From positions 2,177,950 to 2,241,949 of the forward strand of contig NW_004797276.1 in NCBI RefSeq assembly GCF_000002075.1: 64,000 bases of DNA. The letters run 5' to 3'. The stretch is from Aplysia californica (taxonomy: Eukaryota). The number at the start of each line of letters is the position of its first letter. Within the stretch, counting starts at the first letter, position 1. A model generated the notes under the pieces. It was not told the DNA's origin, did not search any database, and saw only the letters and a program-made list of their open reading frames with translations. Positions 1,491-21,338 of this stretch are shown here, in pieces. The position numbers were made by a program, and so were the translations under genes.

Positions 1491-2016
1491 CAGGGGATCC
1501 TGGAAGGACCACGCAGTCATCTGAAGGATCGTCCCCTTCCACTTTGATCACCATATGGTTTCCCGCCGTTTCACTAACAACAGGAGCATCATACTTGACA
1601 GAGTATTTTTGCTGGGCAGATTCTGTCTCTTCAGAGTCACTCAGGCTTCCCATGGCACTAGCACTTTGCCTTGGTTTGTCATGTGGAATATCACTCGACT
1701 TCTTTACATTCTTTTTTGCTCTTTGAGAATCAATTATTTCTTCATCATGGGGAACTTGTTTGGTGCTTAATCTTGAAGGCGGTGAAGAATGATAACTATT
1801 ACTGAGAAAAGTGGTTGATGCATCATCTCCTTCCTTTGATACTTGTTCATCCACAATGTAATTGAATTTGAATTTGTGATCAACCCTGACATTGATATGT
1901 CCTATTAATTCAATACTCTCATTGAAGTCCACTTGCCCATTACAAAGAATCTGTAATGACTTCACTAGCGATGATATGAAATTGCTTGCAGCAATGTTCG
2001 AACTTTCTTCCAGCAT
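1491..2016 (-). CDS. Gene A first coding exon: unnamed conserved N-terminal domain plus low-complexity linker; paralog of gene B; downstream exons lie left of the window
   Basis: On the minus strand, acceptor ttctttctctag| opens the exon at 2028, followed by ACCAAC-ATG at 2016. ORF reads MLEESSNIAASNFISSLVKSLQILCNG...VIKVEGDDPSDDCVVLPGSP. Donor CCT G|gtaagt at 1491 (phase 1). About 34/63 aa are identical to the gene B N-terminus by manual alignment. Confidence 0.85.
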
Positions 2017-2902
2017 GTTGGTCACCAACTAGAGAAAGAATTCAAACAGATTAACATTAAAACTTTTCCATTTTATAACGTTAAAAAAAACAAAAACAAA
2101 TATGATGTAATGATGACTTGAAACCAATGAAAGATAACAATATCTGTTTGTGACATTTGTTAACTAGTGGTGTAGATGATTTCATGAAGCACTTTAAATA
2201 ACTTATAAACACATTCTGCACATGAGTTACAAGTAAAGGAAACTGAATGCTTGAAACTTTCAACCATAGTTGCTCAGAAGGCTTGCATAACACTCTGCCC
2301 AAATCCACACTTTTGATACATGGATACATCCTTAAGACAGTTTTTTCCGAGTTTTGCAGGACTTTGGAGGAATGCTCCCCGAGCCTTTTGACACATCTTG
2401 CACTTGCTGTTGAAGGTAAGCCTAGGCCTAGGTTTGACAGCGACGAAGTCTTCGAATTAATTGGTCTTTTCTTTTTTTCTTTTTTAGATACATTTAAATT
2501 CTCTGTCTTTCTAGGCCTAGATCTAGATCTATGTAGATTTAGATTCTAGATCTAGATGTCTAGTCTAGATCTGGATTCTAGAATCTAGATTTTTAGCTCT
2601 AAGATAGAGATAGGCTATCAGTTCTAATAGTCTCCTATTGGATTACAAGTGATGGGCCAGATTTTGGACTTCAGGCTAGCTTTGGGTCGTGTGTTAAACA
2701 AAGTTTAAAAAATTTATTTAGGGACCCTAATTCTTTCTAAAAATCATTCTAGAGATCTAGAATCTAGGCTGGATCTGTACCCTTAGTAAAAAGGTTGTCT
2801 AGTCTGTCAAGAAGTCCAAAACTTTGTTAAAATGTTATCAAATGGACTTCCTTTCAGACAAAACCTTCACAGCAGCAGACACTTAAATTTCAACACTGAA
2901 TA

Positions 2903-3145
2903 CCCTATCCGTATGTCGTGTTTTACTCTCGTATCCATACGATGTGGGGAACTCTGTGCCACTACTTTCCAAAGAGAAAATTTACTCGTTAATCCAATCC
3001 GTACACTTTGCATAGCAGTCTGTCAAAATGATTTTTTGAGAAATACTGAAAGTTTCAAAGAGTTCTTCGCACGAGAGAAGTATTCTAAAATGTGAAGAAT
3101 ACAATCCTAGGGGTACAAAATGACTCCAGGGCGTACGGATAGGAT
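2903..3145 (-). mobile_element. piggyBac-like MITE copy
   Basis: Inverted copy of 51309-51564; termini CCCTATCCGTA...TACGGATAGGA|TTAA. Confidence 0.7.
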
Positions 3146-3401
3146 TAATGAGGATTGTATAGATTGTGAAGCACATGGAGCTTGCTGTTGAGCGGGGATT
3201 TGCGCTATACATATGCTATCTATTATTAATGATCAGATCAACTTGTACAGTTTAATCTGTCCGAGACGACCACCCATTGTCGATGACAAAAGTTGTCATC
3301 TCATACTGTCATTTTTTTTATGCAGGGGGGGGGGGGGGGGCAGTGGGAAGTGATCGTTTGTAGTTTAAACAGGTGGTCGTTATAACAGGTTTGACTGCAC
3401 T

Positions 3402-4626
3402 CAGGGTTGGGTTGATTTAAATCAGGTTGATTTAAATCAGTTGATTTTTTTTATTTAAATCAACTTGATTTTTTAAATAAAAATCAGTGATTTAAATCAC
3501 TTTTTTTTAAAATTATTTTTATTCGGTTTTTACACATTTCAACATTCAGAATTCCTTTCCTTGGTTTCATATAACAGATATAAGGTTTAGTAGACTAATA
3601 TAATCATGCTTAAAAGTCTGCTTTCCACCCTTTCACTGTAAAATAATACAGTATTCAATTTACTTTTTTTTCCATAAAATGAAATCAGAGCTGGGTTGAT
3701 TTAAATCAGTTGATTAAAAATTTTTTAAAATCAATTTGATTTTAAAAATAAAAATCAGTGATTTAAATCACTTTTTTTAAAAATGTATTCAGATTTTACA
3801 TATTTAAACTTTCAGAATTCCTTTCCTTGGTTATATTTTAAACGGATATAAGGTTTAGTAGACTAATATAATCATGCTTAAAAGTCTGCTTTCCCCCCTG
3901 TCACTGTAAAATAATACAGTTCTCAATTTACTTTTTTTCCATAATTGAAAACCAGGGTTGGGTTGATTTAAATCGGGTCGATTTAAATCAGTTGATTTTT
4001 TAAAATTTAAATCAACTTGATTTTAAAAATAGAACTCAGTGATTTAAATCACTTAAAAAAAATGTTTTCTGTTTTTACATCTTTAAACATTCAGAATTCC
4101 TTTCCTTGGTTTTATAAAACATATAAGGTTTAGTAGACTAAAACTGCTTAAAAGTCTGCTTTCCCCCCCTGTCACTGTAAGTAGTAAAATAATACAGTAT
4201 TCAATTTACTTTTTTTTCATAATTGAAATTAGCATTTTCTTTTTCTTTTTAGACAAACACAAGCGCGTGCTCACACACACACTGTAATAAAAATAAAATG
4301 CAAGTTTATCTATGCATAATTACCCCCCCCCCCCCCTCCTTCCTTTTAGACTGACATTTTCTTCATTTTTTGTCTGTAGCCATAATTCACTGATATAGCA
4401 GATTAAGGCTTTCTAAAATTGCAGTTGCTTAAATTAATCATTAGTTAAAATAAAGACAATGCATTTTGCACTAAAAGAACATACTTTTAGCCACCAAAAA
4501 TCCCAAACTGTGTCGACATTTTGAAAAAAATCAAAAAAATCCGATTTAAATAAAAAAAATCTGATTTAAATTTTAAAAATCGATTTTTTAATTTTTATCC
4601 CCCCCCCAAAAAAATCACCAACCCTG
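3402..4626. mobile_element. hAT-like non-autonomous element with an internal ~270-bp triple tandem repeat
   Basis: TIR CAGGGTTGG...CCAACCCTG; 8-bp TSD actgcact/actgtact; GATTTAAATC subterminal repeats; three units at ~3402-3690, 3690-3955 and 3955-4230. Confidence 0.8.
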
Positions 4627-19419: not shown

Positions 19420-20041
19420 ATATTACACTTTTTTCTCGTTGTTGTGACCCAGATTTTTACCAGTCCTCTGGGCTTTGTAAGCGCAAAAGACTTGGCTAAT
19501 TTTTAAAAATAGTCACGTGTTAGATACAAGGCCTTAAAGTTCAAGCATAAGGCTAAACTTCTTTACATTTTGTTGTCTCTCTGGGTAAATATGTGTTGTA
19601 AAGTTATGTCTTTTCAACCTTTTATTTGGCGCTCATATCGCCTTATGCAGTTGCGAGCGCCGTAAAAACTCTACTAAAGCTAAAATAACCGTTTTATAGT
19701 CAACGCCCACTGTTGCACCTTGAAGAGGCTAAAGTTTTCATTCCACCCATCTACGTATATACTTCCAAGTGGGAAATAAAATAACCCTTGTCTCTACCAC
19801 CAAGGTGATCCCCGCTGCCCACCCAAATTCCCAATTGTCAACAGTGTACTGCCCAGGTTGGCAAGCACTGGTCGGAAAAGTAATCCTGAAATAGATTTAT
19901 TTTTCATTTTTACCCAAGCTCTGGTTTGTGCACATTTATGTGTACTGTGTTTTTGCCCAAACTTTTAGTCAATATTAAACCACAAAGAAAACTGCAATGA
20001 AACTTGGATAAGAGAAGTTAACGACATGTTTATGAATTATA

Positions 20042-20203
20042 CAGTAAACCTGTATAAGACAATCACCTTTACAAACGATCATTTCTCATTTCCTCCCTCA
20101 TATTTTTTTTTAACATTAATTGATTTTGTGCAGAATTACCACCTGTTTGAAACGGCCACTTTTCTCTTCTGCAATGAATGGCAGTCTTAGACAATTTTTA
20201 CTG
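20042..20203. mobile_element. Short pogo-like MITE
   Basis: TA|CAGTAAA ... TTTACTG|TA termini; related in layout to the short element at ~3248-3398. Confidence 0.5.
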
Positions 20204-20569
20204 TACTTATATGGTGACAAATCCCTGTTCAACGATGATGGATGGCCTTGTTTGTTGTCTCTGTTTTTTCCACTTTGGTTTCTATTTTTAATATAAGGTA
20301 GGGTCTGCCCTTCGTCCTTTCAGATAAACTCAAGGTCCAGTGTGCATGTTGCACGATCCAAGATTATCTGGATAGCGCAGGCCTGATTTGAAATTATCAT
20401 TTAAGGACAACAACAAAATTGTGACTTTGTCAAAGTGAAATTATAGAAAAGTGAATGAGAATGGTTTTTGCTCTGTAATAATCAGCTTTACTTCATTTCC
20501 TCCAGGACATGGAAATATTTTAGGCTTTAATAACTAATTTTTTTTCTCCAGGCTACAAAGACCAGCAAC

Positions 20570-21338
20570 ATGAATGGTGAATCAGCTAACAAGTTCATCT
20601 CTGCTTTGGTGAAGTCACTTCAGACTCTGTGCCAGGGTTATGTGGAGTTCAATGATGGGATAGAAATAATCGGACATTTATACCTGAACATTGATAGTGG
20701 GTCTAGTTTTGACTACATAGTGAAAGAAAAGGTTTGCAAAAATGCTGAAAATTCCACTATATTTGTGAGCAAAAGTTATGCTGCTCAGACACCACCTGAT
20801 GAAGTGATAACTCGGAGAGATAAAGGTCAGTCAATGGGCAATGACCAAGGAGCAGACTTTGAGGATGCATCGATGTCTCCTACCGCAGGCACATCTCGGT
20901 TGCAATCAGCTATCACAAGCATCAGCAATGTTTTGTCTGGGGCCCAGGATAATCAGAAGTCTCGCCATATGTCCCTAGACCACTCCCACCTTCCATCAGC
21001 ACATTCTATTAAGAGAAAAAGAGAGCACAATGGTAATTATAGCGGAATGCATCCTCCATACAAGTACACCACTCTACAATCTTCATCATCATCTTCAGCC
21101 TATTTCAACAGTGCACCATCAAAACAAGCAGCAGACAGAAACCATTCTGAACAATTCAGCAGTTCATCCCATGCTGAGTTTTTCGGTGGTGACAGCAACC
21201 AAAGCTCAGGTATGGGCCCTGATGATGAGGATGATCTAGACTTAGATGTGACTTTTGTGAAAGAAGAATATTCAGAAAGTCAAAGAATCTCCAATCAAAG
21301 GGGGGTTTCAGCTGGTGCTGCTTCCAGACTCAGTCAAG
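20570..21338 (+). CDS. Gene B constant coding exon 1: unnamed N-terminal domain plus Ser-rich linker
   Basis: Acceptor tttttctccag| (exon starts 20552), CAGCAAC-ATG at 20570, 256 open codons, donor CAA G|gtagtt at 21338 (phase 1). N-terminus is homologous to gene A. Confidence 0.9.

Follow-up and report, generated by a model that had tools for sequence, protein, structure and literature searches.

Lineage-specific heads of zinc-finger proteins are well known from insects (ZAD) and from vertebrates (SCAN and KRAB), where they expand mainly as many genes. In the cis-spliced BTB genes broad, fruitless, tramtrack and pipsqueak, alternative last exons on the same strand pick the DNA-binding domain. 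Here, we analyzed two genes of the gastropod Aplysia californica, LOC101859211 (gene A) and LOC101859451 (gene B), which point away from each other in a stretch of 64,000 nucleotides (nt) of contig NW_004797276.1 (positions 2,177,950 to 2,241,949; below, the window, to which all coordinates refer) and which combine a constant head domain with alternative 3' modules. Many BTB genes yield isoforms that differ at the C-terminus, with C2H2 tails in lola and FLYWCH tails in mod(mdg4), and the TTK motif and TTK-type BTB domains were not found in Mollusca (PMC11426971). In mod(mdg4), the last common exon is joined to modules, which carry promoters of their own and in some cases sit on the opposite strand, and deletion of a U1-binding pseudo-donor has little effect in vivo (PMC6237743). 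KIAA1958 has two isoforms with DUF3504 domains on different exons and with the catalytic residues lost (PMC3212892).

The Aplysia locus resembles lola and mod(mdg4) in that a constant head and linker are joined, here in gene models, to one of many 3' modules, and in its tails, which are of C2H2 type in both A and B and of FLYWCH type in 2 of 100 scanned members of the family described below. It differs from them in its head, which has about 76 amino acids, is predicted to form one helix and three strands and has no BTB match, and in its layout, with no opposite-strand module in the window and with several linked paralogues that each have their own array. With no match to BTB in the head, and with TTK-type BTB not found among molluscs, we regard the locus as one that works like lola and mod(mdg4) without being a member of that group. 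With the cis-spliced BTB genes it shares tails of the psq-type helix-turn-helix (HTH) class, but under another head and within a wider range of tails (DUF3504-like, BEN-like, CENP-B, zf-Tnp and homeodomain). Module 3 of gene B is a DUF3504-like alternative tail, a likeness to KIAA1958 and, with it, to KCTD1, ZMYM and WOC among the Crypton-derived DUF3504 genes; unlike in that group, it follows a different N-terminus, alternates with C2H2, BEN-like and psq tails and scores below the Pfam cut-off. As in ZAD, SCAN and KRAB proteins, a small lineage-restricted N-terminal domain is followed by a disordered linker and C-terminal fingers, whereas diversity here comes mainly from alternative tails of few genes, and the head has no Pfam match to those domains.

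We favor, with a probability of roughly 0.8, the reading that A and B are paralogues with an uncatalogued head domain, that the constant 5' exons of each are cis-spliced to alternative modules of its own, and that the products are likely transcription factors.

Constant exons and variable tails of genes A and B

The constant parts of the two genes comprise the following features.

1491..2028, minus strand: large constant exon of gene A, with head domain, linker and IKVE (RefSeq match and splice-site reading)
1537..1548, minus strand: psi-K-x-E motif (IKVE), residues A157-160, likely acceptor of the small ubiquitin-like modifier (SUMO) in A (motif; function presumed from the consensus)
1777..2004, minus strand: ~76-aa domain in gene A, ends approximate (domain hidden Markov model [HMM], E 1e-33; 48% identity to B)
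6793..6801, minus strand: 3' end of the upstream exon of gene A (ATG ATC CAG, then GT; MIQ, phase 0; from RefSeq isoform starts)
20552..21338, plus strand: large constant exon of gene B, ATG at 20570, donors at 21032, 21209 and 21338
20570..20797, plus strand: ~76-aa domain in gene B (AlphaFold2 model; no Pfam match)
21257..21268, plus strand: psi-K-x-E motif (VKEE), residues B230-233, after DLDLDVTF; lost with donor 21032 or 21209
22470..22670, plus strand: last common exon of gene B, 201 nt, phase 1-1 (100% to RefSeq X1 to X3)

Each large exon matches its Aplysia californica gene (LOC101859211 for A, LOC101859451 for B) at 100% identity. In A, the acceptor (...TCTCTAG) lies at 2028 and the ATG at 2016, 12 nt inside the exon and within CAAC-ATG; the coding span of 526 nt places the donor at 1491 (CTG/GTAAGT) in phase 1. 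In B, the acceptor reads ...TCTCCAG, the exon starts at 20552, 18 nt ahead of CAAC-ATG (ATG 20570), and the 769 coding nt likewise make the donor at 21338 (AAG/GTAGTT) phase 1. The common plan described in the first-pass annotation was therefore recovered in the sequence in all its parts: an acceptor 12 to 18 nt ahead of CAAC-ATG, a single large exon that holds domain plus linker and ends in a phase-1 donor, a psi-K-x-E motif late in that exon (IKVE in A, VKEE in B) and a divergent layout about 18.5 kb apart, the two ATGs being separated by 18,554 nt.

RefSeq isoforms of A start with MIQ/LVTNM, and we sited the corresponding donor, ATGATCCAG/GT, at 6793, the sole minus-strand match to ATG-ATH-CAR between the two genes. 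With the RefSeq start in this upstream exon, the 12 nt before the ATG of the large exon are coding in the RefSeq model. From donor 1491, A continues into a second constant exon (GEYNEC...REQ) to the left of the window, and the donor of that exon, where REQ is followed by G or D, is apparently phase 1. The large exon of B has three in-frame, phase-1 alternative donors: 21032 is used in RefSeq X2, 21209 in X1 and X3, and 21338 in a MetaClust record and in orthologues, and the choice between 21209 and 21338 is present in Biomphalaria isoforms as well. Donors 21032 and 21209 each drop the DLDLDVTFVKEE motif and the psi-K-x-E VKEE. The donor of exon 22470-22670 is the true constant-to-variable junction of B. 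Downstream of that exon, the window holds four module sets, all on the strand of B and all with phase-1 acceptors.

29330..29688, plus strand: module 1, two C2H2 fingers, phase-1 acceptor (Pfam zf-H2C2_5, E 5e-7)
29906..30186, plus strand: module 2, two C2H2 fingers, phase-1 acceptor (Pfam zf-C2H2, E 3e-4)
45839..47668, plus strand: module 3, DUF3504-like, exons 45839-46015 and 46890-47668 (RefSeq X3)
58329..62015, plus strand: module 4, BEN-like, exons 58329-58420, 59794-59900 and 61903-62015, continuing past the window (RefSeq X1, X2)

The assignments of modules to the constant part are taken from database models. RefSeq isoforms of B carry the BEN-like and DUF3504-like tails, and orthologues contribute psq-type and C2H2 tails. 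A Candidula orthologue model joins the constant part of B to module 1 (89% identity over 63 aa); module 2 is 55% identical to a B-subfamily protein, and we found no protein record showing its junction to B. UniRef calls the Biomphalaria orthologue of module 3 DUF3504; in Pfam its matches fall below the cut-off (DUF3504, E 0.11, residues 168-228; QRICH1, E 0.19, residues 16-79), and a single-sequence structure prediction gave no fold (predicted local distance difference test [pLDDT], 35.6). Module 3 is likely derived from a Crypton recombinase. The BEN label of module 4 is that given by UniRef to its orthologues, and Pfam returned no BEN match for the module itself. Across heterobranchs, the modules of B are 57 to 89% identical. 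The psq-type tail occurs in B orthologues of Biomphalaria, Bulinus, Physella, Plakobranchus and Elysia and is absent from the window.

Several further features of the B array were noted. In the region 29688-31700, canonical poly(A) signals are first seen after both C2H2 modules (31556 and 31693); module 2 would therefore sit in the 3' untranslated region of module 1. In Biomphalaria X6 (P0184), the BEN-like module has an alternative last exon of its own, so that variation is nested inside a module. Protein P0037, whose N-terminus is identical to that of Pomacea P0036, has a DUF3504-like part (EWLLARG...) directly after the constant region; this part corresponds to the Aplysia module exon at 46890, whose acceptor is phase 1. 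Two assembly gaps inside the array (26892-26991 and 57485-57809) could conceal more modules, and the short frames at 41843-42127 and 62090-62320, which have no Pfam match, resemble LINE C-terminal remnants.

The first-pass annotation had also proposed that gene A has a variable 3' array of its own. Rather than a single fixed 3' structure, RefSeq gives five isoforms of A (XP_005089609, XP_005089515, XP_012936375, XP_035824956 and XP_012936377) with a common N-terminus and four different C-termini, one a long basic tail and the others three C2H2 modules preceded by a mini-exon, with two constant exons common to all. The window contains none of these C-termini, and the modules of A thus lie to its left. 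The C2H2 modules follow a mini-exon ending in ...DDK and start with M, D or V; because these three residues cannot share one first base, the junction between mini-exon and C2H2 modules is most likely not phase 1.

The head domain and its gastropod family

The A and B proteins share 38 of 80 residues (48% identity, E 7e-22), and the similarity is confined to the N-terminal domain (the first ~80 residues). Their linkers do not align, their large exons have no nucleotide similarity, and a domain HMM run over the 64-kb window found exactly two copies, A and B. An AlphaFold2 model of the B copy, built from a 91-row alignment, had a mean pLDDT of 82.9 and predicts one long helix (residues 3-24) and three strands (30-41, 45-57 and 63-67). 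Pfam assigned no family to the B head, and no BTB was among the families found for the 91 aligned or 100 scanned members. NCBIfam returned one irrelevant weak match, the ESM Atlas no usable match for two domain queries, and Foldseek no match to the head model at E ≤ 0.001. A PDB sequence search (best 60 of 113 matches) hit the tail part of the profile alone, mostly in C2H2 proteins. The best VIA-align match to the head was a pseudopilin at background level (Z 5.5, root-mean-square deviation 3.0, 70 aligned). That fold searches gave no convincing match does not make the fold new. Conserved hydrophobic columns run along the helix and at consecutive strand positions; they seem to be more than one helix can bury, which suggests an oligomer interface.

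A psi-K-x-E motif lies within 220 residues of the domain in 133 of 143 nonredundant family members, against 12.5 expected from shuffled sequences, and is typically preceded by an acidic-hydrophobic stretch. For a single gene, the rate expected by chance is 0.11 for IKVE in A and 0.03 for VKEE in B. By its consensus, the motif would be a SUMO site.

A search with the domain retrieved 302 representatives at E ≤ 0.001; the description here draws on the best 150 of them, and 30 proteins were looked up by name. The named records came without exception from gastropods, namely heterobranchs, caenogastropods, Haliotis, Patella and Lottia. In 200 of 212 proteins, the domain begins no later than residue 15. 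Among 100 scanned members of the 150, 55 had a Pfam match, always C-terminal: mostly C2H2, along with CENP-B_N (5), zf-Tnp_2 (4), psq (3), the FLYWCH pair mentioned above, a homeodomain (1) and transposase-type HTHs. Many pairs of family proteins are identical over 250 to 390 residues and then diverge. One Physella paralogue, on a contig as long as that of A and B, has 7 different C-termini after 316 common residues, with isoform labels running up to X35. At least five subfamilies are built alike and chromosomally linked, with C2H2, FLYWCH, psq, CENP-B and homeodomain tails. We found no description of the family or of the head domain in the literature searched, which covered few subscription journals, and database names of its members, such as "ZBTB17" and "ZKSCAN1-like", are misleading.

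Conserved linkage of the two genes was seen in related species: orthologues of A and B were on equal-sized contigs in all six species where both were retrieved, a result that rests on contig sizes and locus tags rather than on DNA-level synteny, with orientation known for Aplysia alone. The locus tags of A and B are adjacent in Bulinus, Physella and the B. glabrata M-line and 5 apart in the sacoglossans Plakobranchus and Elysia marginata. In Physella, Biomphalaria, Pomacea, Babylonia and Patella, the contig or chromosome carries further subfamilies as well; one Elysia paralogue sits on another scaffold. The divergent orientation of A and B is one arrangement inside a cluster.

In a tree of 60 of the 147 aligned rows and 80 columns, A clustered with caenogastropod sequences (support 99/95), and so did B (94/92). 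With test groups named after the first tree had been viewed, monophyly of the heterobranch A and B sequences taken together was rejected (p-AU = 0.00018), and a sister relationship of all A to all B was not rejected (p-AU = 0.217). As A and B each group with caenogastropods, their split likely predates the divergence of heterobranchs and caenogastropods. A recent inversion is ruled out by the lack of nucleotide similarity between the exons together with the rejected heterobranch clade. Of the ancient inverted duplication originally suggested, the ancient paralogy stands and the private two-gene inversion falls, since A and B belong to separate subfamilies that each have caenogastropod members. 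A and B are thus paralogues that separated long ago and point away from each other.

Proposed cis-splicing and its alternatives

On the favored reading, the constant 5' exons of each gene would be joined, likely by ordinary cis-splicing, to one 3' module of the same gene, yielding likely transcription factors with one head and varied DNA-binding tails; the non-C2H2 tails, too, would be expected to bind DNA. Self-association of the head is likely, by analogy with the BTB domain of lola and mod(mdg4), and would let isoforms that differ in their tails form mixed complexes. The psi-K-x-E lysine is likely sumoylated, and the alternative donors of B would switch this site in or out.

The distribution of modules among heads is consistent with this scheme. 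Orthologues of the B modules were found in B-type proteins (DUF3504-like, 4/4; BEN-like, 9/9; psq, 10/10) and orthologues of the A tails in A-type proteins (X1 tail, 8/8; second tail, 7/7). All 38 hits to non-zinc-finger modules were on the head of their own subfamily, with no chimeric protein among them, and zinc-finger modules cross-matched other subfamilies at generic levels (at most 46% identity). Several points weigh against the scheme. The isoforms are database gene models, and the Aplysia records contain no junctions to the two C2H2 exons of B. The 38 hits include the same genes more than once, from several assemblies, and as most come from genome-guided models they could not reveal chimeras. 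The BEN and DUF3504 labels are unconfirmed at Pfam thresholds. Moreover, even same-strand modules of mod(mdg4) are proposed to be trans-spliced (PMC6237743), and co-orientation is therefore no proof of cis-splicing.

This last point leads to the strongest competitor, intragenic trans-splicing as in mod(mdg4) and lola, in which modules transcribed from promoters inside the array would be joined in trans to the last common exon of their own gene. The layout is that of mod(mdg4), all of whose mRNAs are proposed to be made in trans (PMC6237743), and the modules of B are spread across about 40 kb. A CTAG-rich patch inside the array (62401-63001) resembles the one at the presumed promoter of B, although the signal is weak (P = 9e-4, uncorrected). 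Against this, none of the 4 module sets in the window lies on the opposite strand, as judged from a six-frame search for the C2H2 pattern and from tblastn queries with tails of homologues; the array of A and the remainder of that of B extend beyond the window. The last common intron of B up to the first module (22671-29329) contains no plus-strand 11-mer complementary to U1 with up to 2 mismatches; window-wide, this motif had 14 matches against 17.2 expected. Cis-spliced alternative last exons account for every model seen, and we consider intragenic trans-splicing unlikely.

Trans-splicing between the genes, raised speculatively in the first-pass annotation, would join the constant part of A to modules of B and the reverse, the head-to-head layout being kept for this purpose. 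The linkage of A and B, conserved in 6 of 6 species, would fit; however, other subfamilies are located on that chromosome too, and the linkage is thus not special to the pair. A plus-strand donor-like site at 2415, in the first intron of A, could mean overlapping 5' transcripts. The argument from the phase-1 donors at 1491 and 21338 did not hold: both lead to second constant exons and not to modules, so that they are not the variable junctions and the wrong donors were compared, and the phase is inherited. The donor of the second exon of A and the acceptors of B do look phase 1, and A-to-B chimeras would be in frame; yet common descent predicts a phase common to A and B, and the junction of the C2H2 modules of A (...DDK, then M, D or V) is most likely in another phase. 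Non-zinc-finger modules occurred on the head of the other gene in 0 of 38 cases, a comparison of low power. We consider exchange between A and B very improbable.

Least probable of all is that small independent genes or remnants of transposons were joined to the heads as modules by annotation error: some pipelines call modules as genes in their own right (BgiMline_001646, BEN-like; Bpfe_000201, DUF3504-like) and tails are often transposase-type domains, but head and module are paired alike in Aplysia, Biomphalaria, Elysia and Candidula and in B-type proteins of the caenogastropod clade, module identity among heterobranchs is 57 to 89%, and the acceptors of all four modules are in-frame and phase 1.

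The intergenic region and the meaning of the family

Genes paired at a bidirectional promoter have starts within about 1 kb of each other. Here, the known upstream exon of A lies at about 6.8 kb and the presumed promoter of B at about 18 kb, which places them about 11 kb apart. The likely promoter of B comprises an ETS-like motif at 17970 and a CTAG-rich patch at 18.0-18.6 kb, and further promoter-like motifs, NRF1-like and YY1-like, lie between the genes at 9567 and 13695. Donor-like sites near the latter two (9176 and 9991, plus strand; 11861 and 14448, minus strand) may mark small intervening or noncoding transcripts. Pfam searches of 138 of 143 intervening frames gave matches for 4, all below the cut-off and none credible, although genes with short exons would escape such a search; Rfam gave 0 matches.

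A CTAG-rich patch at 2201-2901 (16 per 400 bp versus a mean of 1.1) adjoins the plus-strand donor-like AAG/GTAAGC at 2415. It lies inside the first intron of A, antisense to A, and is possibly promoter-proximal or part of an antisense or far-upstream first exon. Similar patches occur at 10.0-10.4, 18.0-18.6 and 62.4-63.0 kb. An open frame at 6204-6638 (minus strand), with a weak integrase zinc-binding match (E 0.096), is likely a retrotransposon remnant in the first intron of A. Two pieces that flank the presumed promoter of B (17240-19420) recur together at 38100-39031 with 84 to 86% identity; they form a dispersed repeat, which could bring promoter-like sequence into the B array.

The interest of the locus rests more on the uncatalogued gastropod family with variable tails than on the head-to-head pair. 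Insect BTB genes have been the main known case of one head with many tails; in the present family, the design is gastropod-wide, built on an uncatalogued head and spread over several linked paralogues whose tails include domains of transposon origin, which points to a convergent combinatorial transcription-factor or chromatin-architecture system. A bolder and improbable version is that gastropods have independently evolved a system like that of lola and mod(mdg4), with a new oligomerization domain, clustered paralogues that each have an array of captured and often transposon-derived exons, and some joins made in trans, either inside one gene or between neighbors such as A and B. If that were true, regulated trans-splicing of the non-leader type would have arisen a second time, outside insects. 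The hosts include Aplysia, a neuroscience model, and Biomphalaria and Bulinus, the schistosome host snails, and with their family it can be tested directly if arrays of this kind depend on trans-splicing or function in cis.

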